Shown here: positions 2,414 to 23,060 of the stretch, one piece after another
How positions within the stretch are numbered: position 1 is the stretch's first letter
Layout: each line of letters opens with the position of its first letter
Source: an uncultured delta proteobacterium
GTDB taxonomy: Bacteria > Desulfobacterota > Desulfobacteria > Desulfobacterales > JAFDCJ01
Assembly: GCA_963769935.1 (NCBI GenBank)
Contig: CAVYNY010000038.1
Coordinates: 32,001 to 96,000 of the forward strand
Length of the DNA: 64,000 nucleotides
Reading direction: 5' to 3'
Program-made: the position numbers and the translations under genes
Notes under the pieces: generated by a model
What the model saw: the letters and a program-made list of their open reading frames with translations, nothing else
Told to the model about the DNA's origin: nothing
Database searches by the model: none

Positions 2414-3631
2414 TTATTTTCTCATTTTCCAGTTTGGAAAAGGATAAACGGGTTTTTTAACACCATTGGGATAAACCTGGTATACTTCACCGCCTAAAAT
2501 CTGCAATACGACGCTGGTCCCCTTGATCTGACCGTTATCGCTGAATTCCACGCGTCCATAAATCGTTTCTAAATTTGTTGCTGCAACGGCGGCTCTCACT
2601 TTTTCTCTATCCAGTGATCCTGCCTGTTCGATGGCGTTCTTGTAGACGGCAACATCGGCAATACCGGAAGCATTGTGATAATCCGGATCATAATTAAATT
2701 TTGCTTTAAACAGCTTGATAAACTCTTGCGTGTCTGCAAAGAGGTATCCTTTAAAGTTCATTTGGGTGGACCAACTGGCAACGCCATATATAAAGTCCGC
2801 ATCTTTGCCGAGAGATTTTCGAAAATCGGCTTCCGAGGGGCCGACTGTCATGGCGATGAGTTTCGGAGTGACGTCGAGTTCTTTGGCTTGCTGAGTAAAA
2901 TTAAGCGATTCTTCGGTGTGGCCGGCCACCAAGGCAACGTCTGCTTTCAGCGACTTTATTTTGGTAAGGATGGAGTTAAAATCCGTGGCACGTTCGGCAT
3001 ATTTTTCAAATAAAATTATATCAAATCCCATCTCTTTGGCCAATTTGTCGGTCCCCTCGGCAACGCTCACATCAAATTTGTCATCTGAATATAAAATTGC
3101 GATTGTTTTGGGCGCCGGGCTAAATGTTTTCAGCATCTCCAGGGTGGATTTAAAGTACTGGCCGGCCGGCGGAAGGGTCCCGAAAATATATTTGTTTCCC
3201 CGGTTGAATATATTACCGGAAGCGCCGCCGCCTTCAATCATGGGGACTTTGTAGCGCTGGGCAACAAGTCCGTCCGGGATGGTAATACCGCTGGAATAGG
3301 GGCCTAGGAGGAAATCAACCTTATCTTCGGCGATGAGCTTCTCAACAAGTTTGGAGCTTTCGGTTGGATCGCTTTTATCGTCATAGTAAACAATTTGCAA
3401 CTGGTAGGTATCGTTACCGGCCTTGACCCCGCCGTTCTTGTTGATCTGCTCGACCGCCATGTCATAGGAGTCTCGATAAAGCTTTCCGGTCCGACTTTCT
3501 GCGCCTGTAAAGGATATGGCGCATCCCAGCTTTATCACTTTTTCGCCGGCTGCCTGGGCAAAATGTCCGAGACTCAGAACCAGGGCGACCGTCAAAACAC
3601 CATAGAAGAAATTTTTCAGTAATCTGTTCAC
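2414..3631 (-). CDS. ABC transporter periplasmic amino-acid-binding protein (LivK/LivJ family)
   Basis: Signal peptide ending AQA; motifs IKLG, INKNGGV, YYDDKSDP and LLGPYSS. Probable GTG start at 3631 behind a GAAGGGGG RBS. Confidence 0.9.
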   Translation of the reverse strand: MNRLLKNFFYGVLTVALVLSLGHFAQAAGEKVIKLGCAISFTGAESRTGKLYRDSYDMAVEQINKNGGVKAGNDTYQLQIVYYDDKSDPTESSKLVEKLIAEDKVDFLLGPYSSGITIPDGLVAQRYKVPMIEGGGASGNIFNRGNKYIFGTLPPAGQYFKSTLEMLKTFSPAPKTIAILYSDDKFDVSVAEGTDKLAKEMGFDIILFEKYAERATDFNSILTKIKSLKADVALVAGHTEESLNFTQQAKELDVTPKLIAMTVGPSEADFRKSLGKDADFIYGVASWSTQMNFKGYLFADTQEFIKLFKAKFNYDPDYHNASGIADVAVYKNAIEQAGSLDREKVRAAVAATNLETIYGRVEFSDNGQIKGTSVVLQILGGEVYQVYPNGVKKPVYPFPNWKMRK

Positions 3632-3946
3632 AATAGCACCCCCTTCTAATATGAAGTTAGAATATAAGTTTAAGAACATATACCATTCCATGAATTACTA
3701 TTCATGGTATGGCCTGTCAACAGGCAAATTCCGCTTAAAGGTAAATAAAGATGGGACATCGCTTTTTGACTGATTGTTCTCTCAGACACCCTGATAACTG
3801 CAGCGGCCCTCCCCGTCAGCGGCATCATCGATTTTTAAGACTTCTTGAGCAGCTTAGTTTCAGCTCGACCTAACCGGTTAGTTCTGGTAATTTATAGTCC
3901 ATATAAATCTAAAATATATTCATTTGTGCGAAAAATATCCAAAATA

Positions 3947-3968
3947 GCTATATCAAGGTTGACATAAC
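3947..3968. promoter_or_regulatory. ModE-box-like palindrome GCTATATCA-AGGT-TGACATAAC overlapping a TTGACA -35 candidate upstream of porin-modA
   Basis: The same 9-4-9 palindrome recurs at 16314 and 29580, and this copy precedes modA. Confidence 0.65.
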
Positions 3969-4133
3969 TCAAAAGTTATTGTTGTATGCCATTTCAAAAA
4001 AAATTTTCTCCCGTCAGCTTTTTACGTGACCGGTTATTCATAAGAAACCGCCTTTGATTCATCTTTATTTATCTACAAATAGTCAGTGAGCGTTCTAAAA
4101 ACTATTAACGACAAACAGAGGGAGGAGAGCGGC

Positions 4134-5423
4134 ATGAAATGGGGAAAAAATTTTTGGTATCCGGTATTGGCAGTAATGTTGATGGTAACCGTTTACGCCA
4201 CGGCAGTGAGGGCCGATCAGACCGACAAACTGATAAAAATCCTCATTGATAAAGGCATTATTACGAGCGAGGAAGCAAAATCTCTGGAAAAGGAGGTCAA
4301 GGGGGAGGCATCAGAAAAGGAGGCCAAGAAAGAGGCACCCGCCGCTGAGGACTGGACCAAGAAGATCGAGGTCGGCTATAAAAAAGGCGCCTATATCAAA
4401 ACCCCCGATGACCGCTACTCTCTGAAGCTAAACGTTCGAACCCAGGGCCTGTTCAGGTATGAGAACCAGGAAGATGCAAAGGACACGGCAAGCTTTAGTG
4501 TCAAACGCGCCCGGCTTCTGGCAGGGGGCAACATGTTTTACCCCTGGATGCAATATTTCACCCAGGTTACTCTGGAAGGCAGCAGCGCGGCATTGCGGGA
4601 TGCCTACATCGAGGCCGCTTATTATGACTGGGCCAAACCGAGAATCGGGCAGTATAAAGTGCCCTTTGACCGGGAATTCCTCACTTCGGCGTTTAATCTC
4701 GAACTTATCGATCGGTCCATCGCCAGCAGTGCGTTTTCCCTGCAGCGGGACATCGGCGTCCAGGTTTCAGGGAATATCCTGCAAAATCAGTTAGCCTACG
4801 CTGTGGGAATGTTCAACGGCAGTGGGGCGAATCAGGTTAATCAGGATCAGAATTTCATGTATGTAGGGCGCATCGTCTATACCCCTTTTGGTTCTTTTCC
4901 CTATTCGGAGGGGGCGCTGGACACGCCGGCCACCCCGAAGCTGGCCGTCGGTGCGGCCGGCGCGTATCTGCCCGGCCTGGAACCGGGCGAGAGGAAAACA
5001 CTGGCGGGCCCTTTGGGCAATACCAATATAGTCCCCGTGAATAGCGATGTATATGAACTGACGGCGGATCTGACTTTCAAGTATCTAAATTTCTTTTTCG
5101 AAGGCGGCTACTATTTCCGCAATATCGATCCGGAAAAGTCTACTCCTTATGGCAGTGAAAACGCCCAGGGGTTCTTCCTTCAAGGGGGGTATTTTTTGGT
5201 TCCGAAAAAATTTGAACTGGCCGGCCGTTATTCCTGGGTGAACCCGAATAATCCCGACCAGACCAACGACAACGAGCAGCAGGAGTATACGGGCGGGTTA
5301 AGCTACTATATTGACGGGCACAATTTAAAGCTCCAGGCCAACTATTCATATTTCGACAACGAAACCACGACCGGTAATCAAGACGACCAGGTGGTGCAGG
5401 GCATGATGACTTTGGCCTTCTAA
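4134..5423 (+). CDS. OprO/OprP-family anion-selective porin
   Basis: Signal peptide; N-terminal LIKILIDKGIIT segment; motifs FSVKRARL, LRDAYI, IGQYKVPF and RDIG; C-terminal Phe. ATG 4134 behind GGAGG. Confidence 0.8.
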   Translation: MKWGKNFWYPVLAVMLMVTVYATAVRADQTDKLIKILIDKGIITSEEAKSLEKEVKGEASEKEAKKEAPAAEDWTKKIEVGYKKGAYIKTPDDRYSLKLNVRTQGLFRYENQEDAKDTASFSVKRARLLAGGNMFYPWMQYFTQVTLEGSSAALRDAYIEAAYYDWAKPRIGQYKVPFDREFLTSAFNLELIDRSIASSAFSLQRDIGVQVSGNILQNQLAYAVGMFNGSGANQVNQDQNFMYVGRIVYTPFGSFPYSEGALDTPATPKLAVGAAGAYLPGLEPGERKTLAGPLGNTNIVPVNSDVYELTADLTFKYLNFFFEGGYYFRNIDPEKSTPYGSENAQGFFLQGGYFLVPKKFELAGRYSWVNPNNPDQTNDNEQQEYTGGLSYYIDGHNLKLQANYSYFDNETTTGNQDDQVVQGMMTLAF

Positions 5424-5465
5424 AAAGTAACAAAACTTTTTAGCGAAGGTAAAAAGGAGATAATT

Positions 5466-6278
5466 ATGAAAATCTATCGAAACTTAGTGGTCTTGGTTGC
5501 GCTTCTTGCCCTTTCAATGCCTTTGTCCGTATCAGCCGATTCATTAACGCTTTACGCTGCAGGAAGTTTGAAGGCAGCCCTCGGCGATGTGGCGGCTTCC
5601 TATGAAAAAATCTATAAGACGAAAGTGACCACAAAATTCGGCCCGAGCGGCCTTTTGAGAAAGTCCATTGAAGGCGGTGAAAATCCCGATGTTTTTGCTT
5701 CTGCGAATATGGCTCACCCCGAAAAACTCGCATCCGGCGGATGGGGAAGCCCGGTAGTGTTGTTTGCCCGCAATCAGCTTTGTGCATTGGCTCAGCCTGA
5801 TGTTGAGGTAACAGCCGACAATCTTTTAAATTCCCTTATGGATAAGAACGTCCGGCTGGGAACTTCTACACCAAAAGCAGATCCAAGCGGCGACTATGCC
5901 TGGGAACTCTTTCGAAAGGCAGATACGATAAAGAAGGGGAGCTTTGCGACGCTTTCCGGTAAGGCGCTTCAGCTCACTGGTGGACCGGACAGTGAGAAAG
6001 CTCCCGCAGGACGCAACCAATACGGATGGGTAATGGGCGAGAAGAAGGCAGACGTCTTCCTTACCTACTGCACCAATGCCGTATTGGCTCGAAAAGAAGT
6101 GCCAATCCTTAAGATCGTCAGGATACCTGAAGCGCTTTCGGTAGGGGCCGACTACGGCCTTTTAGTAAGGGATAAAGCGCCGAAGGAGGCCTGGCGGCTG
6201 GCGATGTATATTTTGTCACCCGAGGGCCAAAAGATACTCAAAGAATATGGTTTTGAAGCTACCGCAATTCCAAAATAA
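5466..6278 (+). CDS. modA: Molybdate ABC transporter periplasmic binding protein
   Basis: Signal peptide; motifs YAAGSLK, FGPSGLL, DVFASAN, STPKADPSGDYA and GQKILKEYGF. Confidence 0.9.
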   Translation: MKIYRNLVVLVALLALSMPLSVSADSLTLYAAGSLKAALGDVAASYEKIYKTKVTTKFGPSGLLRKSIEGGENPDVFASANMAHPEKLASGGWGSPVVLFARNQLCALAQPDVEVTADNLLNSLMDKNVRLGTSTPKADPSGDYAWELFRKADTIKKGSFATLSGKALQLTGGPDSEKAPAGRNQYGWVMGEKKADVFLTYCTNAVLARKEVPILKIVRIPEALSVGADYGLLVRDKAPKEAWRLAMYILSPEGQKILKEYGFEATAIPK

Positions 6279-7453
6279 TGATGGATCACCCAGTGCAGCT
6301 CACCTATTTAGACAATGCAGCGACGACGTTCCCGAAGCCTCGGGAAGTGTTGCGGCAAATGACGGAAATCTATTCCCGGCTGGGGGTGTCTCCAGGCCGG
6401 GGAGGCTACGATTTGGCGGTGGAGGCATCCGAATTCGTCGAACAAACCAGGCGCAAAGTGGCGAATTTCTTCGGTGCATCCGACCCGCAGCGCGTCATCT
6501 TCACCGCCAATGCCACCGACGCACTGAACCTGGTGATTCAGGGCGTTTTGCAGCCCGGCGACCATGCGATCGCAACCCGGCTGGAACACAACTCCGTATT
6601 GCGCCCGCTGGATCATCTGCGGCAGCGTGGATTGCTCGAATACGATCTCGTGCCATTCAACGCCGGTGGATTCATCGATCCGGACGATGTAATCGCCAGG
6701 GTGCGATCCGACACCCGGCTGGTCATCATCACCCACGCGTCCAATGTTCTCGGCACCGTTCAGCCGGTCGCGGAAACCGCGCGGTTGTGCGCGCAACGCG
6801 GCGTCCCCGTGGTTATTGACGCCGCTCAGAGCGCCGGCAAGATCCCGATCGACATGCAGCGCTGGGGCATCGCGGCCGTGGCCTTTACGGGCCATAAATC
6901 GCTCTGCGGCCCCTCCGGAATCGGGGGGTTAGTTGCGGCGGACGGATTCGACATCCGGACGACCCGGTTCGGCGGCACCGGAATCGAGTCGCGCAGCTTG
7001 ACCCACACGCAAAGCTATCCCCACCGGCTGGAAGCGGGTACCATCAACCTGCTGGGGATTGCCGGTTTGTCAGCCGGGCTGGATTTCATCCTGGCTGAGG
7101 ACCTGGACGCAGTCCACCAAAGGGGGATGGCGCTGTTGACGCGGCTTCGCAACGGTCTGGCGCAACTGCCGGATATGGATCTGTACTGCGCCGAGAATCT
7201 CGATCATCACATGGCGGTCCTGACCGTCAATGTCAAAGGCATGGATCCTGAAGACGTGGGCGCCATTCTGGACGGGGACTTTAATATCGCCGTCCGCACC
7301 GGCCTTCACTGCGCGCCCCTGGTTCACGAAGACTTGAATACCAGCCCCCGCGGGGGCGTCCGCTTCAGCCTCGGCCGCTTCAACACGGATGAGGACATCG
7401 ACTGGGCCCTGGCAGCCATGGGTAAAATCGCCCACCGCCATAGAGGAGCATAA
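6278..7453 (+). CDS. Cysteine desulfurase-family PLP enzyme (class V aminotransferase, SufS/CsdA-like group)
   Basis: Motifs YLDNAATT, EHNSV, DAAQSAG, FTGHK (PLP lysine), EAGT and RTGLHCAP (catalytic Cys). Start overlaps the modA stop. Confidence 0.9.
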   Translation: MMDHPVQLTYLDNAATTFPKPREVLRQMTEIYSRLGVSPGRGGYDLAVEASEFVEQTRRKVANFFGASDPQRVIFTANATDALNLVIQGVLQPGDHAIATRLEHNSVLRPLDHLRQRGLLEYDLVPFNAGGFIDPDDVIARVRSDTRLVIITHASNVLGTVQPVAETARLCAQRGVPVVIDAAQSAGKIPIDMQRWGIAAVAFTGHKSLCGPSGIGGLVAADGFDIRTTRFGGTGIESRSLTHTQSYPHRLEAGTINLLGIAGLSAGLDFILAEDLDAVHQRGMALLTRLRNGLAQLPDMDLYCAENLDHHMAVLTVNVKGMDPEDVGAILDGDFNIAVRTGLHCAPLVHEDLNTSPRGGVRFSLGRFNTDEDIDWALAAMGKIAHRHRGA

Positions 7454-7458
7454 ACTGA

Positions 7459-7815
7459 ATGGACGGCTGCAGATTTTTTATGGATCTGATGTTTTCGCTG
7501 GATGCGGCCTTTCTTGCCGGGCAGAGCTTCGGCGCCCGGCATCCGGATAGTTGGGGGGAGCGGTTTTTTCAGGAACTCTCCTTGAACCACCCGGAATGGG
7601 TGGGCCAAAAGCTCCCGATCTACATGAAGGCCTCCGAGATTATTCACTATTTTGCATTTTTTGAGCGAGCCGATGAAATGGTTCCGGCATTCTATGAAAA
7701 ACCGGAAGCGCTGCTGCAGATGGTGCTGATGCTATTGCGCCATGGCGGGAACAGTCTGTTGGCGGAGGATGCCAGGGAACAGGGCATGGCCGGCAATCAT
7801 GGAAAAGCAGCTTGA
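7459..7815 (+). CDS. Hypothetical protein (118 aa)
   Basis: ATG 5 bp after the desulfurase stop with a GAGGAG RBS; no recognised motif. Confidence 0.6.
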   Translation: MDGCRFFMDLMFSLDAAFLAGQSFGARHPDSWGERFFQELSLNHPEWVGQKLPIYMKASEIIHYFAFFERADEMVPAFYEKPEALLQMVLMLLRHGGNSLLAEDAREQGMAGNHGKAA

Positions 7816-7864
7816 AAGAGTAAAAAATCCTGGCCCGGAGACTCAGGCTTTGACTTCACCCCAG

Positions 7865-7977
7865 CTTCCGGCTCGCAGAGCCTGCAGCTCGGAGAGAGGG
7901 GTGGTGCTTGAAGTCACATAACCCATGGGATATTGGAATAGCGGCCTCCGGCTCGTAGAGCCTACGGATCGGGGAGA
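7865..7977. repeat. Two ~33-bp imperfect direct repeats (c.tccggctcg.agagcct....g.tcgg.gaga) 80 bp apart
   Basis: Copies at 7865-7897 and 7945-7977. Confidence 0.7.
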
Positions 7978-8024
7978 AAAGTGGAATATTGAAGTCGTGG
8001 AGTAATGGAAAAGGAGGAGCGAGC

Positions 8025-10682
8025 ATGAAAAGTGTGAAATTGAAAATTAACGGGCTTCAGCATCAGTTTATCGTCGAGGACGACCGCGTCCTCCTGGATC
8101 TCCTGCGGAAAAATCTGAGGCTTACCGGCGCCAAGCAGTCCTGCGACCGCAAGGGTCAATGCGGCGCATGCACGGTCATCGTAAACGGGAAAGCATCCCG
8201 GTCGTGCCTCCTGAAGGTCGGGAGCCTCGATGGCGCGGAGATCATCACCGTAGAGGGGCTGGGAACCCCTCGGAACCCCCATCTGATCCAGGAAGCCTTT
8301 GTCTTGGCGGGAGCGATTCAATGCGGGTATTGCACCCCGGGGTTCATTATGGCAGCCAAAGCGCTGTTGGACGAAAACCCCGACCCCGGCCGGGACGAGA
8401 TTAAACAGGCTTTACAGCGCAATCTCTGCCGCTGCACCGGCTACACCCGGATCATTGAGGCCGTCGAGCTGGCTGCGCGCTTCCTGCGCGGTGAGGCCCG
8501 CCCGGAAGATCTGAAGCCCGCCACTGCCGAAAGTCAAATCGGCGTATCCCATCCTCGGCCATGGTCTCTGCTCAAGGCCTGCGGGCAGGCCGATTTCACA
8601 GCCGACATCTCCGTCCCGGACGCCCTTGAGCTGGCGGTCGTCCGCAGCCCGCACCACCATGCTAGGATAAAGCATATTGACTTCTCGGAGGCTGAAAAGA
8701 TGCCAGGAGTTGTCGGGATCATTACGGCCAGGGACATCCGCGGCACAAATTCCGTGGGAGTCGCCGTCAAAGACCAGCCGCTTTTGTGCGATGACCTGGC
8801 GCCCGTACTCGGCTCTCCGGTGGCGATCGTGGCCGCTGAAACCAGGAAGCAGGCCCTCGCGGCGGTTCAGGGTGTGCGGGTCGACTACGAGGTGTTGCCG
8901 CGCGTCGCCACCCCGGAGGCCGCGCTGGCCGAAGGCTCCCCGGAAATCCATCCCGGCACGCCCAACCTCTGCCACTCCCGACGCCAGGTCAGAGGCGATG
9001 CCGGGACAGCCCTGAAGGACTCGGCGGCCGTGGTTGCAGCGGAGTTTTATTCGCAGCTCATCCATCAGGCGCCGCTCGAGCCGGAGGCTGCGGTCGCGTA
9101 CCTGGAAGGCCGGGGCGAGGATGCGCAGCTGGTGGTCATTGGCCGGTCCATCTGGATCCACTATCACGTGGAAGTGCTTCAGGACGCCCTCGGGTGGGGG
9201 AACATCCGCTATGAGGAGGCGTTTGCCGGGGGCCAATTCGGCATCAAAGTCGATATTACCTCCGAAGCCATTGCCGGAGCGGCGGCGCTGCACTTTCAAA
9301 GGCCGGTCCGCTACATCCCCAGCCTGACCGAATCGATGTGGATGACGACCAAGCGGCACCCTTTCCGGATGAAAGTGCGGCTGGGCTCCGACGCGGACGG
9401 CCGATTGATGGGGTATGACATTGACCTCGTTGTGGAGAACGGCGCCTATATGTCGATCGGCCCGGAGGTGGTCAGCCGAGCGCTGGGAATGCTCAGCGGC
9501 GGCTACCACATCCCGAACGTGTCCGCCGACGCGAAACTGGTGTATACCAACAATGCCTGGGGTGGAGCCGCCCGCGGCGCCGGACCGCCGCAGGTGAACT
9601 TTGCCCTGGAGTCGGCGATGGATCTGCTGGCCGCTGAACTGAAAATGGATCCTTACGAATTTAGACGGATCAATGCCCTGCAGCCGGGACAGTCCATGTC
9701 CACCGGCCATGTGGCTGAGGAATGGGCATTCGGAAATTGCCTGGCCAAGATCGGACCGATTTATAAGCGCGCCCGCGAGGAAGCCGCAGCCTACAAGTCC
9801 GGACCGGTTCGGCGGGGCGTGGGTCTGGCAGGCTCCAGCTTCGGCGTAGGCGATCCCGGCGACACATCCCATGTCGCCGTTGAGCTCGAGCCGGAAGGTG
9901 TCCTCGCCGTCTACGCCTCGGTGGCGGATCCCGGTGAGGGCAATGACGCCATGCTGACGCAGCTCGCATCGCATGTCATGGGCATCCCCCCCGAAAAAGT
10001 CCGGCTGGTGACCCGCAACACGGAGCAAACCCCCAATTCGGGGATTTCCGCCGGATCGAGGCAGACCTACATGTCCGGCAAGGCAATGGTGAGCGCCATT
10101 GAACTTCTGAAAGACGCTATGCAGGAGTCCGGCGCCAAAACCCGGGAAGATCTTTTGGCGCGGGGGAAGCCGACTCGCTACCTGGCGATGCATGTCCTGC
10201 CGCACACGGGCATGGATATGGAAACCGGCCAGGGCGAAGTCTGGGAGTCCCGCTGCCACGGCGTGCAAATGGCGGAAGTCGAAGTCAACCTGGAAAGCGG
10301 GGCGGTTAAAATCTTGAAGATGACGGCCGTGGTCGACCCGGGAACAATCATCAATCCGCTGGCTGTGATCTGCCAGCTGGAAGGCGGCATGGACATGGGA
10401 GCGGGCATGGCCCTGCGGGAGGAATATGTTCACGGAGAGACCGTCGACTGGGTAACGTATCGGTTTCCCACGATGAAGACCGCTTTCGAAATGGAAACCA
10501 TCCTGCTCGAGTCGCCCAGGAAGGGCGGACCCCTGGGGGCCACCGGGGTGGGTGAATTCACCCTCGTCCCGACCCATCCGGCCATCATCAATGCCATCGC
10601 AGACGCGGCTGGAGTCAGGATCTATGACCTGCCGGCAACCCCCGAGAAGATTCTGGCCGCGCTGAATGGCACCGCCGCTTGA
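8025..10682 (+). CDS. Single-chain molybdopterin aldehyde oxidoreductase-like enzyme with two [2Fe-2S] clusters and a Moco domain (paralog 1)
   Basis: Motifs SCDRKGQCGACTV, QCGYCTPG, NLCRCTGY, GGQFG, TKRHP, ARGAGPPQ, QLEGG and GVGE. ATG 8025 behind AGGAGG. Confidence 0.92.
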   Translation: MKSVKLKINGLQHQFIVEDDRVLLDLLRKNLRLTGAKQSCDRKGQCGACTVIVNGKASRSCLLKVGSLDGAEIITVEGLGTPRNPHLIQEAFVLAGAIQCGYCTPGFIMAAKALLDENPDPGRDEIKQALQRNLCRCTGYTRIIEAVELAARFLRGEARPEDLKPATAESQIGVSHPRPWSLLKACGQADFTADISVPDALELAVVRSPHHHARIKHIDFSEAEKMPGVVGIITARDIRGTNSVGVAVKDQPLLCDDLAPVLGSPVAIVAAETRKQALAAVQGVRVDYEVLPRVATPEAALAEGSPEIHPGTPNLCHSRRQVRGDAGTALKDSAAVVAAEFYSQLIHQAPLEPEAAVAYLEGRGEDAQLVVIGRSIWIHYHVEVLQDALGWGNIRYEEAFAGGQFGIKVDITSEAIAGAAALHFQRPVRYIPSLTESMWMTTKRHPFRMKVRLGSDADGRLMGYDIDLVVENGAYMSIGPEVVSRALGMLSGGYHIPNVSADAKLVYTNNAWGGAARGAGPPQVNFALESAMDLLAAELKMDPYEFRRINALQPGQSMSTGHVAEEWAFGNCLAKIGPIYKRAREEAAAYKSGPVRRGVGLAGSSFGVGDPGDTSHVAVELEPEGVLAVYASVADPGEGNDAMLTQLASHVMGIPPEKVRLVTRNTEQTPNSGISAGSRQTYMSGKAMVSAIELLKDAMQESGAKTREDLLARGKPTRYLAMHVLPHTGMDMETGQGEVWESRCHGVQMAEVEVNLESGAVKILKMTAVVDPGTIINPLAVICQLEGGMDMGAGMALREEYVHGETVDWVTYRFPTMKTAFEMETILLESPRKGGPLGATGVGEFTLVPTHPAIINAIADAAGVRIYDLPATPEKILAALNGTAA

Positions 10683-11062
10683 CCGATGGGATCTTAATTG
10701 TGCGCAAGCAGGACCATGTCACGGATCACGGCGGGACGCCAAGGGCGGACGCCGCCCTAAAGATCGTCCTGGATGGGGAAGGGTTTTTGAAAAACCCTTC
10801 CCTTTGGTCGGAGGATGTAGCAGCGGCTATGGCCGGGGAAGCAGGGATCCAGCTCCTGAGCGCGGCGCAGTGGAAAGTCCTGCGATTCATCCGGGCTTAC
10901 TACACCGAGCAAGGCAAGGCACCGCTTAATTATCACATCAAAGCAGCAACGGGCATGCGCCTTCAGGAAATCGAAGCCCTGTTCCCGGGCGGGATTTCCA
11001 ACGGTGCAAAACGGCTGGCGGGTTTGCCCAGATCCAGGGGATGCACCGCCGGCTCAGGGTGA
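10679..11062 (+). CDS. TusE/DsrC-family sulfur-relay protein (single C-terminal Cys)
   Basis: Motifs LDGEGFL, WSEDVA, QWKVLRFIRAYY, LFPGG and AGLPRSRGC. TTG start overlaps the upstream TGA; the exact start is uncertain. Confidence 0.85.
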   Translation: MTDGILIVRKQDHVTDHGGTPRADAALKIVLDGEGFLKNPSLWSEDVAAAMAGEAGIQLLSAAQWKVLRFIRAYYTEQGKAPLNYHIKAATGMRLQEIEALFPGGISNGAKRLAGLPRSRGCTAGSG

Positions 11063-11128
11063 AAACGTTGCCTAAATCTGTATAACTGTCTAGAAGAAGT
11101 TGGCGCCAGACCGTTGCATTTGCGAAGT

Positions 11129-11234
11129 CGATGCTGGATGCTCGATACTTGAAGTACTTGATACTGGATTTTCAGGCATGCACCGGCAGTGAAATCCACA
11201 AAAATCCAGCATCCAGAAACCAGTATCCAGGATC
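11129..11234. repeat. Inverted heptamer-array palindrome (gatgctg/gatactg ... cagcatc/cagtatc) between convergent genes
   Basis: atgctggatgctcgatact...atactggatttt versus aaaatccagcatccagaaaccagtatccag. Confidence 0.7.
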
Positions 11235-11304
11235 AATCCATAATACCCATGACTTTCTTCGGAACAGCCAGAGTTCGATGCAATACTTTATGCAATTATA
11301 GGGT

Positions 11305-11661
11305 TTAGCTGCAGGTTTTGGGGTTGGGCAGCCCGGCCAGCCGTCTGGCCCCCTTCCTGAGACCCTCCGGAAAAAGGCTCTCCAGTTCCAGCAGGCTCAT
11401 CGCGATTCCCTTCCGAAGCTCGTTGTTCAGGGGCGCCCGGCCGTTGTAAGCATAAAACTCACGCAGGAAACGGACCACCTGTCGCTGCCGGTCGGTTATG
11501 CGCTCAATGCCGCCTTCGCGGGCCAGGGCCTCGAAGATTTCCTCCGACCAATCCTCAAAATGCTCAAAGAATCCCTCATCGTCAAAGGCGATATCGCGGC
11601 CGGCGATAACGCGCAGGCAACGCTTGGCATCTTTTTCCTCTTCCGGTGGTGAAATGCCCAT
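11305..11661 (-). CDS. TusE/DsrC-family sulfur-relay protein (single C-terminal Cys)
   Basis: Motifs FDDEGFF, WSEEI, VVRFLREFY, LFPEG and AGLPNPKTCS. ATG 11661 lies 7 bp after the stop of oxidoreductase paralog 2. Confidence 0.88.
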   Translation of the reverse strand: MGISPPEEEKDAKRCLRVIAGRDIAFDDEGFFEHFEDWSEEIFEALAREGGIERITDRQRQVVRFLREFYAYNGRAPLNNELRKGIAMSLLELESLFPEGLRKGARRLAGLPNPKTCS

Positions 11662-11668
11662 GGTCGAA

Positions 11669-14335
11669 TTATCGAGCGGCTGCCAGCGCGGCCTTGATTT
11701 TTTCAGGGGTGGCCGGCAACTCGCAGATCCACACCCCGGTGGCATTTTTGATGGCATTGATCACGGCCGGCGCAGTAGGCACCATGCACATCTCACCGAC
11801 GCCGGTGGCACCCAGCGGCCCCTTCGGACGCGGCGTTTCCCTGAAGATGACTTCCATATCGAAGGCATCCTGGATTTTCGGGAAACTAAAGGTCCTCCAG
11901 TCCCGGGTCTTGCCGGCCACGTATTCCTCCCGCAGCGCGAAGCCTACCCCCATGTCCATGCCGCCTTCCAACTGGCCGGTCAGGTTCTGGGGATTGATGA
12001 CGGGTCCGGCATCGACCGCCGTGGTCATCTTGAGAACCCTGACGTTGCCGGTTTCGGTATTCACTTCAAGCTCGACCATCTGCACGGCATGCACCTGGGA
12101 CTCGAAAGACGGTCCCTGACCGGTAACGGGGTCCAGGGAACCTTCGTCTTCGTTTCGTTTGCGTCCGACATAGCGTTTGGGCTTTCCCGCCGCATCGAGC
12201 GCGGCCGAAGTTTTAGCCCCGGTTTCCAGCATGGCCGCTTGCAACTGCTCCAGCGCGTTGAGCAGGGCGCCTCCGATCATATAGGTGACCCGGCTGCCGG
12301 CGGCCGGACCGCTGGCGGCGGTGTTGATGGTGTCGCGGGTATGCAGCCGCACCCGGTCCAGGGGAATTTTCATGAACTCGGCCGTGAGCTGGCTCAGCAT
12401 GGCATCGTTGCCCTCGCCGGGGTCGGCCGCCGCAGTGTAGACGCTGATGCCGCCGTCGGGGTCGAGTTCCGCGGCGGCCACGGAGGCATCGCCGGGCATG
12501 GCGATGCCGAAGGCCCCGGTGCCCAGGCCAACGCCGCGCTTCAGCATGCCCGAATGGCCGGCGGCAGCCTCCTTGACAGCCCTCTGGTAGTGGGGCCGCA
12601 GAGCTTCCATCAACTCCGGAAAAGGCCATTCCTGCACCACCCGTCCGGTGGATTTGCTCTGGCCCGGCTTCAAGGAATTGCGCAGCCGGAAATCGAACGG
12701 ATTCATGGCGAGCTGGTCGGCCAGCATGTCCATGGCGCATTCCAGGGCGAAGTTGGCCTGCGGCGGCCCCGCGCCGCGGGCCGCGCTGCCCCAGGGATTG
12801 TTGGTGTAGACCAGCCGGCCCCGCGCCGCGATGTTGGGGATGTTGTAGGAGCCCGAGAGCATGAGCAGGGCGCGAAGGACCACCACGTGGCCGATGGAGT
12901 AGTAGGCGCCGTTGTCCACGACAATGTCGTTGCAGAAGGCCGTCAGGTTGCCCTGGCGGTCCGCCGCCAGCTTGACGCCGCATGTCAAAGGCATGGCGCT
13001 TGGAGGTCATCAGCATGCTTTCGGCCAGGCTGGGGATATACCGAACCGGCCGTTTAAAGTGGATGGCGGCGGCACCGGCGATGCCCTCGGAGATCACATC
13101 GATCTTGATTCCGAACTGGCTGCCGGAGATAGGCCTCGATGTAACGCATATTCTCCCAGCCCAGGGCGGTTTGAAGCATGCCCAGATGAAAGTGAATATT
13201 GATGCTGCGGCCGATGATCACCAGCTGGTCGTCCCCGCCCGTGTCGTCCTTTTCCCAGTAAGCAATCGTGGCTTCGGGCTCGAGCGGGGCCTGGTGATTG
13301 ATCTGGGTCTTGAAGCGGGCCTCGACCACCGCGGCCGAGCCTTGCAGGGCAGCCTCCGCATCCCCTTTGATCTGCGGCTGGTCATAACACAGATTGGCAA
13401 GCTCCGGATGAAGCTGAACCGCCGCGGGGGCCAGCGCCGCTTCCGGATCGCTCAAGGCCGGCAGCGGTTCGAGTTGAACGTTTACCTTTTCCAGCGCGGC
13501 CGCGGCATTCTCACGGGTGTCCGCCGCTACCGCCAGGATGGGGTCTCCGATATAGCGGACCTCGTCCTTGCACAGCACGGGACGGTCCGCCACGATGTAT
13601 TTCAGGATATTGGTGCCCTTGATGTCCGCGGCGGTCAGACACTCCGGCGACGCCCGGCATCTTTTCGGCCTGCGAAGCGTCGATTGAGACAATCCGCGCA
13701 TGGGGGACCTCGCTGCGCAGTACGGCCAGCTCGAGCGCCCCCTTGAGATGGAAGTCCGCCGTAAATTTTGCCGTGCCGCAAGCCTTGGCCATGGCGGACG
13801 GGCGCGGATGGGAGATGCCCATGACGCCGTCCGCCGGCTTGGGCCTTACGGTCTCAGGCGTGGTTTCGCCGCGTAGAAATCGGCCGGCCAGCTGCACGGC
13901 TTCGATGATTTTCTTGTAACCGGTGCAGCGGCACAGGTTCCGGCGCAGGGCCTGTTTGATCTCCTCGACCGTGGGCTTGGGATTTGCATCCAGCAGGGCC
14001 TTGGCGGCCATGATCATCCCGGGGGTGCAGAATCCGCACTGGATCGCACCGGCCAGCACGAAGGCCTCCTGGATAAGATGGGGATTGTCCGGCGTCCCCA
14101 AGCCCTCAACCGTGATAATGTCGGCACCATCCAGTTCGGCCGCCCGGAACAGACAGGAACGCTGCGCCCTGCCGTTTACCACCACCGTGCAGGCGCCGCA
14201 TTGGCCCTTGCGGTCACAGGATTGCTTGGCACCGGTCAGCCGCAGGTCCTCCCGCAGCAGATCCAGGAGTACGGTTTTACGATCGGCGATCAAATCACGC
14301 CATACGCCGTTGACTCGCAGTCGAATCTTACGCAT
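11669..14335 (-). pseudogene. Single-chain aldehyde oxidoreductase-like Mo enzyme (paralog 2), interrupted by three +1 insertions (pseudogene or sequencing error)
   Basis: ORF pieces 13511-14335, 13054-13701, 12213-13097 and 11669-12994 are collinear with paralog 1. Removing single extra bases at ~13639, ~13128 and ~12979 gives an ~887-aa ORF. Confidence 0.85.
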
Positions 14336-14438
14336 CTCTTCTCCTCTTCTACCGGCCTTCGCATGCCAACGAACCGGCCGGCGTTTTCACTTTTGGGTCG
14401 CGAAACGCCCGGAATGCCCGCCGTCGATTTGCCACCGT

Positions 14439-16070
14439 TTATTCGGATTCCATGAACGGGTAGCGATAGTCGGTTGCAGGGGCGAAGGTCTCCTTGATTG
14501 TGCGCGGGCTGACCCAGCGCAGCAGATTGAGCAGCGTGCCGGCCTTGTCGTTGGTTCCCGAAGCCCGGCTGCCGCCGAAAGGCTGCTGGCCGATCATGGC
14601 GCCGGTGGGCTTGTCGTTGATGTAGAAGTTTCCGGCGGCGTTTACCAATACCCGTTTGGCGGTTACGACGGCCTGCCGCTGCACGGCAAATATGGAGCCG
14701 GTCAAGGCGTAGGGCGACGTGCGGTCGCACAGGCGCAGGGTTTCCTCATAGCGGTCGTCCTCGTAAATAAACAGTGTGAGCACCGGCCCGAAGATTTCCT
14801 CCACCATGGTTTTGAAGTCCGGTTTCTTGGCCAGGATAAGCGTGGGTTGGATGAAGTAGCCCGTGCGGTCGTCGCAGGAGCCGCCGGCAATGATCTCGGC
14901 GTCGGGGGATTTCTGCGCAAACTCGATGTAGCCGGCGATCTTGTCGAAGGCGGCCTTGTCGATAACGGCATTGACGAAATTGCTGAAATCTTCCGGTGGG
15001 CCCACCCGGATGCTGCCGACCATCTCCAATAGAATATCTTTCAGCGATTGCCAGAGGGATTGCGGGATGTAGGCGCGGGAGGCCGCCGAACACTTCTGGC
15101 CCTGGTATTCGAAGGCGCCGCGCACCAGCGCCACGGCCAGGGCCTGCGGATCGGCGGAAGCGTGGGCGAATATGAAATCCTTGCCGCCGGTCTCGCCCAC
15201 CAGGCGGGGGTAGCTGCGGTATTGCCCGATATTGGCTCCGACGGTTTGCCAGATCTCCCGGAACACGGCCGTCGAACCCGTGAAATGCACGCCGGCCAGT
15301 TCGGGATGCTTCAGCAGCGCCGGTCCGAGCTGGCTGCCGGGACCCGGTAAAAAATTGATGACGCCGTCCGGCAGCCCGGCTTCATGAAAGATCTGCATCA
15401 GGTGATAGGCAGCATAGACCGCCGTGGATGCCGGCTTCCAGATCACGGTATTGCCGAGCAGGGCCGGCGCGGCCGCCAGGTTGACCCCCAGTGCGGTAAA
15501 ATTGAAGGGCGAAATCGCGAATACGAACCCCTCCAGCGGCCGGTATTCCATCTGGTTCCAGACGCCGGGGGCGGAGAGGGGCTGCAGGCCGAACAGGCGA
15601 GCCGCGTTCCAGCAGTAAAATCGCAGAAAATCGGCGCTTTCGCAGGCAGCCTCGATCTCGGCTTGAAAGATGTTCTTGCCCTGGCCCAGCATGGTGGCGG
15701 CGTTCATCTGCATGCGGTGGGAGCCTGCGATAAGATCGGCCGCTTTCATAAAGACGGCCAGTCGATCCGCCCAGGCCATCGAGGACCATTCCACGGCGGC
15801 CTCACGCGCCGCATCGACGGCCATGGCGATTTCCTGCGGGCCCGCCAGGTGATAGACAGCCAGCCGGTGGCGGTGATCGTGGGGCACGATGCAGGCGGCG
15901 GTCCGCTCGGTTCGCACTTCGCGGCCGCCGATGATCAGCGGGATTTCGATTTCTTTGCCCCTGAGCTCGCCCAGGACCGCGGTTATCCGGCGCCGCTCGG
16001 GGCTGCCCGGCCCATAGGACAAGACCGGTTCATTTTGCGGCGGTTCGATGGTGACAGTGGCATTTATCAT
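14439..16070 (-). CDS. pruA: L-glutamate gamma-semialdehyde (1-pyrroline-5-carboxylate) dehydrogenase
   Basis: Motifs PQNEPVLSYGPGSPER, ISPFNFTA, FTGST, GETGGKDF, FEYQGQKCSAASR, EEIFGP and QQPFGGSRASGTNDKAG. ATG 16070 behind AAGGAG. Confidence 0.92.
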   Translation of the reverse strand: MINATVTIEPPQNEPVLSYGPGSPERRRITAVLGELRGKEIEIPLIIGGREVRTERTAACIVPHDHRHRLAVYHLAGPQEIAMAVDAAREAAVEWSSMAWADRLAVFMKAADLIAGSHRMQMNAATMLGQGKNIFQAEIEAACESADFLRFYCWNAARLFGLQPLSAPGVWNQMEYRPLEGFVFAISPFNFTALGVNLAAAPALLGNTVIWKPASTAVYAAYHLMQIFHEAGLPDGVINFLPGPGSQLGPALLKHPELAGVHFTGSTAVFREIWQTVGANIGQYRSYPRLVGETGGKDFIFAHASADPQALAVALVRGAFEYQGQKCSAASRAYIPQSLWQSLKDILLEMVGSIRVGPPEDFSNFVNAVIDKAAFDKIAGYIEFAQKSPDAEIIAGGSCDDRTGYFIQPTLILAKKPDFKTMVEEIFGPVLTLFIYEDDRYEETLRLCDRTSPYALTGSIFAVQRQAVVTAKRVLVNAAGNFYINDKPTGAMIGQQPFGGSRASGTNDKAGTLLNLLRWVSPRTIKETFAPATDYRYPFMESE

Positions 16071-16313
16071 GGCAGCTTGCTTGCTCCTTTCTATACCTAA
16101 CGACATAAACTCTGGTGCATACGCACACAGTGTTCTGCCTATTTGATCCTGTTCATAAATTAAAGATCAGTATTCAAAAGGCAAGTAAAAAAATTTTATA
16201 ACGCAGTGGCTATCATGTTAAAAATGGCCTAGCCAATGGCCCAAAATCCTAACCGGCAGTAAGGGCACTATCCATATCGGCTTGATGCCCGAAGCGATTA
16301 TCATAGAGCTTTG

Positions 16314-16335
16314 CATATGTCAATTGTGATATAAC
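16314..16335. promoter_or_regulatory. ModE-box-like palindrome CATATGTCA-ATTG-TGATATAAC upstream of the pruA-oxidoreductase-tusE operon
   Basis: Matches the 3947 and 29580 sites (9-4-9 palindrome). Confidence 0.55.
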
Positions 16336-16404
16336 CAGATAGCATTTTTGCAGGAAAAGGTGGGCGGGTGGAGAGGGATTTCTGCCGGGATAAACGCCTT
16401 CGGA

Positions 16405-16758
16405 TCAGCTGTCGAGGTAGGCCGCCATCAGATTGTCGTAAACGTCGTTGGATTCGGCCTCGACGATCTGCGAGATGCGCTTGAACTGTTTCAGGAGGGT
16501 TTCGCCCAGGGGCGTCAGGCGGGAGCCCTGGGGCTGCCGGATCAGCAGTGCTTTGCCCAGTCGCTTCTCGGTGGCGCTGATCCGCGCCCAGATCGCCCGA
16601 TAGCTCATCTTAAGCTCTTTGGCGGCGGCCTGCAGCGAACCAAGGCGCTGCACCGCCTCAAGAATGCGGTACCTGCCTAATCCGAATACCACCTTTCCCC
16701 GGGCGTCTTCCACCCAGATTTTCGACCGGATGCGAAACGGTGATTCTTTGGTTACCAT
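16405..16758 (-). CDS. ModE-like winged-helix regulator (N-terminal DNA-binding domain only)
   Basis: Sequence RSKIWVE..GKVVFGLGRYRILEAVQRLGSLQAAAKELKMSYRAIW..GSRLTP. ATG 16758 behind AGGAGG; no TOBE/mop domains. Confidence 0.85.
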   Translation of the reverse strand: MVTKESPFRIRSKIWVEDARGKVVFGLGRYRILEAVQRLGSLQAAAKELKMSYRAIWARISATEKRLGKALLIRQPQGSRLTPLGETLLKQFKRISQIVEAESNDVYDNLMAAYLDS

Positions 16759-16830
16759 GGGAAGCCTCCTTTTTGGGCTCAGCAACCACCTGCGGATGAT
16801 TTGATCTCGTTGCCGATGAATGATTTTGAA

Positions 16831-16935
16831 TTCCACCGCAAAGAGCGCAAAGGGTACTTTTCTTTTCGTTTGCCTTTGAGAGGAAGGCATATAATAAATA
16901 TTTTATCTCTACGTCCTTCGCGCCTCTGCGGTGAA
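16831..16935. repeat. Palindromic CACCGCA-AGA...TCT-GCGGTG element
   Basis: ttccaccgcaaagagcgcaaag ... cttcgcgcctctgcggtgaa; related elements at 36425-36520 and 53051-53141. Confidence 0.65.
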
Positions 16936-17334: not shown

Positions 17335-18477
17335 TTAGACCGCGCATAGGGCTGGGCTGCAGCCTCGCAGGCTTGCCGGCGATCGACCGGTGAGGGCTTC
17401 AATCCGTGCGGCTAATTTGCGGGCGGTGGCGAGCCTGCGGCGGGCGCCGTCGCGGGCCTGCGAATCGACGGGAAATGCGTTCAGGCGCCGGTCAAAGCGT
17501 TCGGCGAGCCCCACGAAGCGATCTTCCGCCACCAGTTTGTCGGCCAGGAACACCACCTCGGCCTCCCGGACCGGCTGCTCCTCGCTCCAGGGAATTTCCA
17601 TGTGGGTGGCGACGATTTCGGCCATACGGGGCATGTGCAGCTCCCGCAACAGTTTTGCTCCTCCACGGGCGTGGTCGAGTTCGCCGCGGGCCATGTCATG
17701 CACGAGGGCGGCCGCACAGATCAGATGGAGATCCAGCGCAAGGCCCGCCTGATTGAGGGCCTTTCCAAGGCGCAAGGCCAGGTCGGCGACGGCACGGCCG
17801 TGCGCTGCCACATCCGGCGGAACCTGCAGCCGGTCGTTCAGCAGCGCTTCACACTCCGCCGGGGAAAAGACTTCCCGGCGCTTCAGCCGTTCGACCATGT
17901 GGAGATAATCCGCGGGCCGATCCATGTCATGGTGGATGAACTCATCGACCACCGGTACATCGACGGCGTGCTGCTCCAAGCGGGCCAACAGAGCCCCCAG
18001 ACCGCCGCTCCCGCGCCATTGCAGGAGGCCGCGGCTATGATATCCGCCGATAAGCGGCGGGTGGCCGCGCCGCCCGCCGAAGGTCGGGTGGCAAATGCCA
18101 GCGGTTCCGGCCGGAAATGCCTGCAGGAGGTCGCCGATGGTGGCCGCCCGCACGAAGGGAATGTCCACGGGCAGCACAAAAAAGGACGCGGTATTCTCAG
18201 CCAGACTCGCCACGCCGGCCGCCACCGAGGAGAACATACCCTCGGCATAGCGGGCATTTACGACGCTGCGCGCACCCCAGCGCTCGACGTGGGACATCAA
18301 CTCGTCTGCGCGGTGGCCGACCACGACATGAATGCGGTTGATCCCGCCGGACTGAAACAGACGGATAACCCGCTCCAGAACCGTCATTCCGCCCAATTTC
18401 ATCAGGGGCTTGAAATCGCCCATGCGCTTTGAAAATCCGGCCGCCAATACGAGAGCGGTGGCAGATTCCGGGTTCAT
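17335..18477 (-). CDS. MocA/MobA-like NTP transferase fused to a C-terminal HD domain (DVU_1551-like)
   Basis: N-terminal motifs LVLAAGFSKRMG, GMFSS, LPVDIP, GHPPL and DMD; C-terminal AAH..AVA, AALVHD and FLADK. Confidence 0.85.
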   Translation of the reverse strand: MNPESATALVLAAGFSKRMGDFKPLMKLGGMTVLERVIRLFQSGGINRIHVVVGHRADELMSHVERWGARSVVNARYAEGMFSSVAAGVASLAENTASFFVLPVDIPFVRAATIGDLLQAFPAGTAGICHPTFGGRRGHPPLIGGYHSRGLLQWRGSGGLGALLARLEQHAVDVPVVDEFIHHDMDRPADYLHMVERLKRREVFSPAECEALLNDRLQVPPDVAAHGRAVADLALRLGKALNQAGLALDLHLICAAALVHDMARGELDHARGGAKLLRELHMPRMAEIVATHMEIPWSEEQPVREAEVVFLADKLVAEDRFVGLAERFDRRLNAFPVDSQARDGARRRLATARKLAARIEALTGRSPASLRGCSPALCAV

Positions 18478-19526: not shown

Positions 19527-19573
19527 GATATTTGCTCCACTATTGAAATCCTGGTCCTCTCGGACAGGATCCT

Positions 19574-22290: not shown

Positions 22291-22401
22291 GATCACATAT
22301 TCCAACATTTAAAAACTGGTCCCCTGAGGCAACGACCACCCCACCGGGGTAAAATTAAACACGATGTAAGCGGGGCCGCTGAGCCAGAACTCTCTTCTCC
22401 T

Positions 22402-22845: not shown

Positions 22846-22847
22846 CG

Positions 22848-23060
22848 TTATTTGTCTTCCAGGAGCTGTTCCACCTCGGCCATTATGCCAAGGGCCAGGT
22901 TCTCCGATATCAGAACAAACCCGCAGACCGGACAGGTCGGAAGCTCGGTCGTAAATTGGTTGCCCATGTATTCAGCAGTCACCGGGCCCACCTGAAGCGG
23001 CTGGTTGCATTTGCGGCACAGCCATTCCAGGTCTTCGGGACGGACGTTTTCGATTTTCAT
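22848..23060 (-). CDS. Small CxxC...CxxC protein (DVU_1557-like)
   Basis: 70 aa from ATG 23060, which overlaps the upstream stop (ATGA): WLCRKC...LPTCPVCG...EVEQLLEDK. The longer ORF-track extension is spurious. Confidence 0.8.
   Translation of the reverse strand: MKIENVRPEDLEWLCRKCNQPLQVGPVTAEYMGNQFTTELPTCPVCGFVLISENLALGIMAEVEQLLEDK

Follow-up and report, generated by a model that had tools for sequence, protein, structure and literature searches.

A conserved triad of a TIGR01977 desulfurase, a one-cysteine DsrC-family protein and a molybdenum hydroxylase as a candidate chalcogen relay

We analysed a stretch of 64,000 nt (the window; positions 32,001 to 96,000 of contig CAVYNY010000038.1, assembly GCA_963769935.1) from an uncultured delta proteobacterium of the order Desulfobacterales, in which genes for single-chain molybdenum (Mo) hydroxylases adjoin genes for small proteins of the DsrC/TusE family and lie close to a gene for a pyridoxal phosphate (PLP) dependent desulfurase. 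On the plus strand modA (5466-6278) encodes a periplasmic molybdate-binding protein (NF002917: 381 bits, cutoff 264; PF13531 match). Its stop codon shares one base (TAATG) with the start of the desulfurase gene at 6278-7453, whose product is a class-V aminotransferase of the cysteine desulfurase / selenocysteine lyase family and scores 428 bits for TIGR01977, the EF2568 family (cutoff 377). After a spacer of 571 nt (7454-8024) follows AOR1 (8025-10682), a Mo hydroxylase with 2x[2Fe-2S] and Mo domains and no FAD domain. The longest open reading frame (ORF) of AOR1 begins at 7989, though the likely start is the ATG at 8025, behind AAGGAGGAG. Its TGA stop (10680-10682) overlaps the TTG at 10679 that opens the ORF of the one-Cys DsrC/TusE-family protein TusE1 (10679-11062), forming a TTGA at 10679-10682; an alternative in-frame start of TusE1, the GTG at 10700, would leave a gap of 17 nt after AOR1. 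On the minus strand lie a second AOR1-type gene, AOR2 (11669-14335), and a second one-Cys protein of the same family, TusE2 (11305-11661). The TAA of AOR2 ends at 11669 and, after 7 nt, TusE2 starts with the ATG at 11661. An initial annotation of the window had described the TTGA overlap, the 7-nt gap and the coupling of the desulfurase gene to modA, and all three are found in the sequence. It had also called the desulfurase co-transcribed; as 571 nt separate it from the AOR1 start, a co-transcription with AOR1 is not evident. Similarly, the two pairs of Mo hydroxylase and small protein are real as gene pairs, but the second enzyme is broken by three frameshifts.

We surveyed one genome per species (185,579 species) with an alignment of TusE1 and its closest database relatives. 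The scan gave 103 pattern matches and 38 confirmed loci, which fall into three groups by C-terminus and neighbours. The first group comprises 24 loci (L001-L024) with a one-Cys protein, hereafter the carrier, that has the motif LFPGGI..A-R-R-[LI]-AGLP...C. An AOR1 ortholog with 58-78% identity lies directly upstream of the carrier in 23 of them; the remaining locus (L002) begins 28 nt before the match, where it is cut by the contig end, and is not judgeable for AOR1. A TIGR01977-type ortholog, 56-66% identical to the desulfurase of the window, adjoins the carrier in 22 of the 24 loci: downstream on the same strand in 18, convergent in three and in L004 upstream of the enzyme gene, the arrangement also found in the window. 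Of the other two loci, L019 ends 22 nt past the carrier and L024 has no desulfurase within 10 kb. The spacing is tight: in 21 of 23 loci a candidate carrier start falls between -17 and +38 nt relative to the stop of the enzyme gene, and in 16 of the 18 loci with a same-strand desulfurase the start of the latter falls between about -5 and +15 nt relative to the stop of the carrier gene. We clustered all flanking ORFs and found nothing beyond the three genes that is shared by more than five loci; the flanks are otherwise unrelated. The hosts belong to the Desulfobacterales, the Syntrophobacteraceae and several Bacillota, so the triad spans Desulfobacterota and Bacillota, and they include the cultured Desulfotruncus arcticus DSM 17038 (L021) and Desulfocucumis palustris NAW-5 (L006). 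The pairing reported from this single window is thus conserved in other genomes. Within the window it is also specific: only the two AOR1-type enzymes among five xanthine oxidase (XO) family members have a carrier, and AOR3 (25580-28300, minus strand), a true Desulfovibrio gigas MOP-type enzyme (NF045668: 1697 bits, cutoff 1100), has none.

The second group (L025-L037, Bacteroidota/Ignavibacteriota-type) encodes a two-Cys DsrC, and in each of its 13 loci (e.g. L025:9965-13401) DsrM-like and DsrK-like genes come next; the third consists of a Cellvibrio tusDCB-tusE operon (L038). A TIGR01977 gene is also present in the fetched flanks of 8 of the 13 DsrC/DsrMK loci. This is an independent link between TIGR01977 and DsrC, and it points to DsrC-fold proteins as the natural acceptors for desulfurases of this family. 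The gene set of these loci may form a module that leads from cysteine sulfur over DsrC to quinone; dsrAB was not seen in their annotated parts. In L029 a cysteine synthase gene adjoins the TIGR01977 desulfurase. The 24 triad loci hold no DsrM or DsrK homolog, and in the window there was only a weak CCG-domain match in an unrelated protein of 774 aa. Furthermore, we found no sulfite-reductase domain among the 55 window ORFs scanned, and tblastn with TusD, TusC and TusB of L038 gave no match in the window or in L001-L037, which agrees with the earlier observation that neither tusBCD nor dsrAB is in the window.

The genes around the triads give some indication of its function. Genes of molybdenum cofactor (Moco) metabolism recur nearby, namely MoeA or other MoCF_biosynth-domain genes, MobA-HD, XdhC and FdhD; together with the coupling to modA they fit a function at the metal centre. 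In a Pfam scan of the 82 nearest flanking ORFs we encountered tungsten-dependent aldehyde ferredoxin oxidoreductases (AFOR) in two loci, aldehyde dehydrogenases (ALDH) in two (L021, L023), class-III aminotransferases in two (L001, L023) and an iron-containing alcohol dehydrogenase (Fe-ADH) in one. Judged from these neighbours, AOR1-type enzymes probably act on an aldehyde. A sampling of plasmids from the enzyme side returned 317 records, all below 60% identity, with the 30 listed at 33-36%; it contained no AOR1-type gene and is uninformative.

TusE1 and TusE2 score 78.6 and 85.9 bits for PF04358 (cutoff 24.9) and 63.3 and 69.3 bits for TIGR03342 (cutoff 53.5), which makes them members of the DsrC/TusE/DsvC superfamily. 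This general model is the only NCBIfam model that they exceed; for the TusE equivalog model NF008562 the scores are 48.1 and 47.8 bits with a cutoff of 191. In an alignment with solved DsrC proteins Cys122 of TusE1 corresponds to CysA, and Lys111, 11 residues upstream, occupies the CysB position. TusE2 has Arg at this position, and so have the carriers of all 24 AOR-linked loci, so that CysB is replaced by Lys or Arg throughout. Consequently the carriers are not two-Cys DsrC proteins in the strict sense, and with CysB replaced they cannot run an intramolecular trisulfide or disulfide cycle. The initial annotation had stated that only the terminal Cys is kept. As regards CysB this is correct, but the Cys of TusE1 is not terminal: the protein ends in ...RSRGCTAGSG with five residues beyond Cys122, and its closest relatives have the common tail G-C-[TSAG]-[AG]-G. 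TusE2 ends in ...NPKTCS, the commoner type in other genomes, and is 50-60% identical to the carriers of L005-L024. The Cys is the second-last residue of TusE2 and of the carriers in 17 of the 24 loci, while 2-5 small residues follow it in TusE1 and its close relatives. On this otherwise variable tail the Cys itself is invariant in 32 of 32 aligned sequences.

We searched 1.84 billion proteins with a profile built from 32 AOR-linked and related carriers and obtained 2562 representatives at E<=1e-3, 22 of them at E<=1e-30. A quick maximum-likelihood tree was then computed for 92 single-domain sequences over 112 columns. All 26 AOR-linked carriers fall into one group of 38, so they do group together, a point that the initial annotation had proposed to check by a phylogeny; the group also includes 12 one-Cys representatives of unknown context. 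It is placed among two-Cys DsrC groups, separate from both a one-Cys group of 13 members and the TusE linked to tusDCB. TusE1 lies within a Desulfobacteraceae subgroup with a support of 96 in the Shimodaira-Hasegawa-like approximate likelihood ratio test (SH-aLRT), and TusE2 lies within the commoner type. Because of this placement the carriers look like DsrC derivatives that have lost CysB and not like TusE orthologs. The TusE-like character given to them initially is thus not supported by the tree or by the low TusE model score (48 vs 191 bits). A carrier fused to a larger partner was not found among 411 longer candidates, which is weak evidence. The profile search also returned many database proteins of 190-370 aa with two tandem DsrC-like domains (P0032, P0034, P0036, P0039 and about 30 others). 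They have high carrier-profile scores, end in ...LFP-x-GY-x-RGAVKIAGL... and lack the terminal Cys. P0028 (541 aa) even has five DsrC-like repeats.

The conserved Cys bears on the question of whether the carrier transfers sulfur at all. The small protein could be a structural or regulatory subunit, in line with an RspA-like use of the DsrC fold, with a desulfurase that serves general Fe-S or Moco needs. The DsrC/TusE/RspA family does include members thought to be regulatory (PMC8477390), and the two Fe-S clusters of the enzyme need sulfur too. Such a role would not explain an invariant Cys on a variable tail, nor that 22 of 24 loci have a desulfurase of one particular family instead of a housekeeping IscS or SufS, nor that TIGR01977 accompanies two-Cys DsrC as well. 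We thus regard it as highly improbable.

AOR1 has the Pfam domains of an XO-family Mo hydroxylase (Fer2, Fer2_2, a/b hammerhead and MoCoBD_1/2), all above cutoff. For NF045668, the MOP-type equivalog, it scores 784.7 bits and remains below the cutoff of 1100. Its second-best NCBIfam model is TIGR03311, selenium-dependent xanthine dehydrogenase, with 559 bits (cutoff 830). Neither AOR1, which passes no NCBIfam model, nor the carriers, which pass only TIGR03342, therefore belong to a clade with a curated name of its own. The best PDB match of AOR1 is the D. gigas aldehyde oxidoreductase, MOP (E 1e-175), and the identity to the MOP-type AOR3 is about 40%. We aligned 21 intact AOR1-type enzymes with AOR3 and with D. 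gigas MOP. The catalytic Glu (E856 of AOR1, MOP Glu869) is invariant and the equivalents of MOP Arg501 and Arg533 are retained. Several other positions separate the AOR1-type enzymes from both references, in each case in 21 of 21 sequences. The active-site loop reads [AS]-A-R-G-A-G, compared to A-F-R-G-Y-G in MOP and A-F-R-A-Y-G in AOR3. The residue aligned with MOP Leu626 is deleted. The first Fe-S loop is C-x5-C (S-C-D-x-x-G-Q-C) rather than C-x4-C. C198 and C328 (ORF numbering) are invariant, with Thr and Tyr at these positions in AOR3 and MOP. We take MOP 532 and 535 to be the counterparts of Phe911 and Phe914 of bovine XO, beside the Mo site, so that the changes of Phe532 and Tyr535 to Ala replace two aromatic side chains next to it. 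Presumably MOP Phe425, Phe494, Leu497 and Leu626 line the substrate channel; the letters at those numbers agree in the alignment. These signatures set the AOR1-type enzymes apart as a clade distinct from D. gigas MOP.

In AOR2 the homology to AOR1 is spread over four tblastn segments in frames -2/-3/-1/-2 with 52-66% identity. The breaks lie near 13640, 13128 and 12985; each resembles one extra base and none is in a homopolymer. AOR2 retains AARGAG and GVGE and is either a pseudogene or a sequence error. Programmed frameshifting was considered and rejected, as there are three separate one-base shifts without slippery runs. The AOR1-type gene of L017 (L017:7269-9934) is also frameshifted, with three frame segments and two breaks. 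An intact carrier gene adjoins both frameshifted enzymes.

We then modelled one complex, consisting of AOR1 residues 13-897 and TusE1 residues 27-127, from alignments that we supplied ourselves. The ipSAE values were 0.78, 0.78 and 0.77, compared to 0.00 for the best of three controls, so the modelling check proposed for the pair came out in its favour. The model runs share at least 72% of the contacts and the predicted local distance difference test (pLDDT) value of the partner is at least 81. The mark of the tool is reached by 116 of 157 solved complexes and by 2 of 215 mismatched pairs; as own alignments were supplied, these calibration counts apply only roughly here. The confident AOR1 contacts are at 258, 391-406, 624-630, 678-683 and 732-739 (ORF numbering), all in the Mo domains. 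On the side of TusE1 they include 32, 38-41, 77-85, 117 and 119-121, the last of which directly precede Cys122. We take the AOR1 segments 391-406, 624-630 and 678-683 to be contiguous with stretches that line the channel in XO-family structures. As three of the four long contact segments abut such stretches, we infer that TusE1 would dock at the mouth of the substrate channel. The predicted model supports binding between AOR1 and TusE1, short of demonstrating it, and to our knowledge no structure of an XO-family enzyme bound to a DsrC-family protein has been solved. A use of the carrier as electron acceptor at the Fe-S domains was rejected: all modelled contacts lie within AOR1 258-739, and none is in the Fe-S domains.

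An arm at the channel mouth could have two different functions. It could serve the maturation of the enzyme, or it could enter a widened active site as a co-substrate in every turnover, as DsrC does for DsrAB. Possible chemistries for a co-substrate are the processing of a persulfide, the formation of a C-S bond or the oxidation of a thiohemiacetal to an acyl-carrier thioester. In 23 of 24 loci the enzyme gene adjoins that of the carrier and is tightly coupled to it, an arrangement that points to near-stoichiometric amounts of the two proteins; the complex is predicted with confidence; and the replacement of two aromatics by Ala together with a shortened channel loop in 21 of 21 enzymes would suit a bulkier ligand such as a peptide arm. 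The carriers also group not with TusE but with two-Cys DsrC, in which the arm is a genuine substrate. However, the chemistry of the XO family known so far is the hydroxylation of carbon centres, and the use of one cysteine in each turnover would be expensive in a catabolic pathway. The aldehyde-related neighbours (AFOR, ALDH, class-III aminotransferases and Fe-ADH) suggest an ordinary aldehyde substrate, and no thioesterase or acyl-transfer partner recurs in the flanks. Overall we consider a co-substrate role rather unlikely. The fuller version, in which the logic of DsrAB and DsrC has moved to a Mo hydroxylase and an arm loaded by the desulfurase enters the widened site at every turnover for sulfur chemistry new to the XO family, seems to us improbable as well. 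If it were true, the reaction of the enzyme would not be plain hydroxylation but, for example, a C-H thiolation, the processing of a persulfide or the formation of an acyl thioester.

The third member of the triad is the desulfurase. The protein of the window has His104-Asn105, the PLP-binding Lys207 and the catalytic Cys345, and these four residues are identical in 23 of 23 AOR-linked copies. With the three genes taken together, we propose a private relay that leads from the TIGR01977 desulfurase via the one-Cys DsrC-family carrier to the Mo centre of the AOR1-type clade, and we would give this proposal an even chance of being correct. The PLP enzyme would take the chalcogen from cysteine or selenocysteine onto Cys345 and load it, in the form of a persulfide, onto the carrier's only C-terminal Cys. 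The loaded protein would then dock on the Mo domains at the channel mouth, and its flexible arm would deliver the atom to the Mo centre, where it would install or restore the terminal Mo=S ligand. The gene families, the synteny and the clade-specific changes in the active site are shown by the sequences, and the docking is shown at the level of the model. Each transfer step, the target atom on the Mo and the physiological substrate we infer from them. Genomic data and modelling support a dedicated relay between desulfurase, carrier and Mo enzyme: the synteny of the triad is conserved, the carriers group in the tree and the complex model passed its controls. The relay of the initial annotation is in this way partly supported, namely as a link between the three proteins; the Mo=S ligand is a putative target, and one of the two enzyme paralogs is frameshifted.

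The delivered atom may be sulfur or selenium, since the founding and only characterised member of TIGR01977, EF2568/SclA, is a selenocysteine lyase that is competitively inhibited by cysteine (bioRxiv 10.1101/2020.02.07.939272). In the selenium version of the relay the PLP enzyme would act as a selenocysteine lyase and the carrier Cys would bear a selenosulfide; the AOR1-type proteins would be selenium-dependent (Mo=Se) enzymes, with a supply route different from the SelD/YqeB/YqeC trait. The desulfurase of the window passes the model of which the lyase SclA is the founding member, and the second-best NCBIfam model of AOR1 is, as mentioned above, that of a selenium-dependent enzyme. The window also encodes the selenoprotein-associated families TrsS and diclust_near_Sec. 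In Enterococcus faecalis the neighbours of EF2568 include a single-chain Mo hydroxylase, a MobA-like gene and XdhC (PMC2276186, PMC2432076). The E. faecalis region EF2566-EF2571 resembles the triad in that a TIGR01977 enzyme is found by a single-chain 2Fe-2S/Mo hydroxylase, Moco accessory genes and a small protein of the sulfur-relay type. It differs in that this small protein is a SirA/TusA-DsrE-like fusion accompanied by SelD, YqeB and YqeC, whereas the relay protein here is DsrC-like and no SelD-type gene is nearby: families of the SelD/YqeB/YqeC type are absent from the 55 window ORFs and from the 82 triad-flanking ORFs. Both selenium-specific models fail, TIGR03311 as given above and the SclA model NF040779 with 311.9 bits for the desulfurase (cutoff 525). 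TIGR01977 moreover pairs with two-Cys DsrC and DsrMK, once by a cysteine synthase, which is a sulfur context. At the site that corresponds to SclA His100, 23 of 23 copies have Asn, which is uninformative either way on sulfur versus selenium. Taken together, we find a selenium relay unlikely.

The selenocysteine specificity of the only characterised TIGR01977 member also counts against a sulfur relay, and several other points likewise weigh against the relay we propose. The survey was seeded from the carrier: it ties the carrier clade to the enzyme clade and not every AOR1-type enzyme to a carrier. The node that holds all AOR-linked carriers has an SH-aLRT of 85 in a quick search on 112 columns. 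The predicted interface is not more conserved than the proteins as a whole, with 0.63 compared to an average of 0.77 for AOR1 and 0.64 compared to 0.66 for the carrier, and therefore conservation adds nothing to the model. The D. gigas aldehyde oxidoreductase, the closest solved relative, is reported to work with an oxo ligand where the sulfido ligand would be (PMC3877041), and for this reason the need of AOR1-type enzymes for Mo=S is an assumption. Finally, in the established bacterial route Moco is sulfurated on XdhC before insertion (PMC13653126), and an XdhC-family gene is present in the window.

The last point leads to a different endpoint of the transfer: the relay could end on XdhC-bound Moco before insertion, with a carrier that only shuttles persulfide from the PLP enzyme. 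This would agree with the established scheme of XdhC and NifS4 in Rhodobacter capsulatus (same source), with the XdhC-family factor of the window and with the XdhC homologs in the fetched flanks of 3 of the 24 triad loci (L007, L011, L016). Against it, 21 of the 24 loci lack XdhC in the fetched flanks although the enzyme is always adjacent, and the model puts the carrier directly on the enzyme. An endpoint on XdhC is, in our judgement, an unlikely explanation. The relay to the assembled enzyme nevertheless shares with the R. capsulatus system an L-cysteine desulfurase of the NifS/SufS superfamily and a dedicated helper encoded near an XO-family enzyme for the supply of the terminal sulfido ligand. 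Unlike there, the conserved helper is a one-Cys DsrC-family protein, the desulfurase belongs to TIGR01977, and the model suggests delivery on the folded enzyme and not on a chaperone-bound cofactor.

Other known systems show similar partial likenesses to the proposed relay. In ABA3, MOCOS and HxB a SufS-like PLP domain passes its persulfide to a second module and from there to the Mo centre of aldehyde oxidase or xanthine dehydrogenase. These proteins may act on the assembled enzyme, in which they would resemble the delivery proposed here. However, ABA3 is a single protein of two domains, of which the C-terminal one binds Moco, whereas we find two separate proteins, the second with a DsrC fold. 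With DsrAB and DsrC the triad has in common a small DsrC-fold protein encoded with a large redox enzyme and a Cys arm predicted to approach the catalytic metal, but the partner is a Mo hydroxylase rather than a siroheme sulfite reductase and the triad loci have no DsrMK. As in the TusA-TusBCD-TusE relay, a one-Cys member of the same fold would carry a persulfide derived from a desulfurase; unlike in that relay, tusBCD is missing from both the window and the 24 triad loci, and the carriers are nearer to two-Cys DsrC in the tree. Compared to D. gigas MOP (PDB 1VLB/1SIJ), AOR1 has the same domain architecture and keeps the equivalents of Glu869 and of Arg501 and Arg533. It differs by the changes of Phe532 and Tyr535 to Ala, the deletion at Leu626, the C-x5-C loop and the extra C198 and C328. 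The two types also differ in their gene surroundings, since MOP-type genes come with a DVU_1551-1559-type accessory set and no carrier.

A literature search found no description of a pairing of Mo hydroxylases with DsrC or TusE, with subscription-only papers and supplements outside its range; within the openly searchable papers the pairing thus seems undescribed, in line with the initial annotation, which knew of no description. An October 2026 review of the Mo sulfido ligand has no mention of DsrC, TusE or 'sulfur relay'. Compared to the known sulfuration of Moco the new parts would be the carrier, the desulfurase family and possibly the delivery point. The terminal sulfido ligand is readily lost from XO-family enzymes, and a conserved triad whose carrier is predicted to bind the assembled enzyme is a concrete candidate for a dedicated sulfuration or repair system. 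Such a system would extend the DsrC fold to a task other than sulfite reduction or the thiolation of tRNA and give TIGR01977 a likely acceptor protein. Furthermore, the signatures described above define a clade of Mo hydroxylases that annotation pipelines currently leave unseparated.

The remaining features concern the surroundings of the triad in the window. Upstream of modA a phosphate-type porin was identified from the ORF listing and the Pfam and NCBIfam scans (4086-5423, plus strand). The spacer between desulfurase and AOR1 contains an ORF of 118 aa (7459-7815), which we rejected as a gene: it matches no Pfam or NCBIfam family, has no homolog in the surveyed loci and is probably non-coding. 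Just upstream of AOR1 the spacer has a direct repeat of 41 nt on the plus strand (7864-7984) in two copies, 7864-7904 and 7944-7984, which are 80 nt apart and 78% identical, each opening with a GGCTC-N3-GAGCC hairpin. The repeat is possibly regulatory; its core motif is absent from all 38 surveyed loci and it has no Rfam match. Rfam searches of the whole window at gathering thresholds and of 3600-8100 at E<=1 detected no known RNA or riboswitch upstream, and the promoter and terminator scans of 3600-16400 gave results not above the shuffled expectation.

The XdhC-family aldehyde oxidoreductase maturation factor (18474-19526, minus strand; NF045664: 403 bits, cutoff 350), which the initial annotation did not mention, lies about 7.8 kb away in the AOR3 cluster and is a possible shared accessory outside the conserved triad. 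This cluster occupies the minus strand from 17335 to 28300 and is a complete D. vulgaris DVU_1551-1559-type cluster with all members above the NCBIfam cutoffs: a MobA-like NTP transferase with an HD domain, the XdhC-family factor, a DVU_1553-family AMP ligase, the radical SAM (seleno)protein TrsS, a 'diclust_near_Sec' flavoprotein with a CCG domain, and AOR3. Part of the window (7989-41698) is a Mo-enzyme island with five XO-family enzymes in about 34 kb. The fourth has a Mo subunit of 878 aa (32548-35184) and a FAD subunit (31324-32241), and the fifth has three subunits (37360-41698). MoeB (35267-36043) and FdhD (36552-37466) are interspersed among the enzymes. Genes that look truncated or split are found at 16405-16890 and 45072-52067: a LysR fragment with only the helix-turn-helix, a tannase in two pieces with the middle missing, the N-terminal half of a carboxylesterase, a lone AMP-binding C-terminal domain and a protein of 390 aa with two TetR N-domains. 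Around 48-52 kb the GC content of the window falls to 43-50%.

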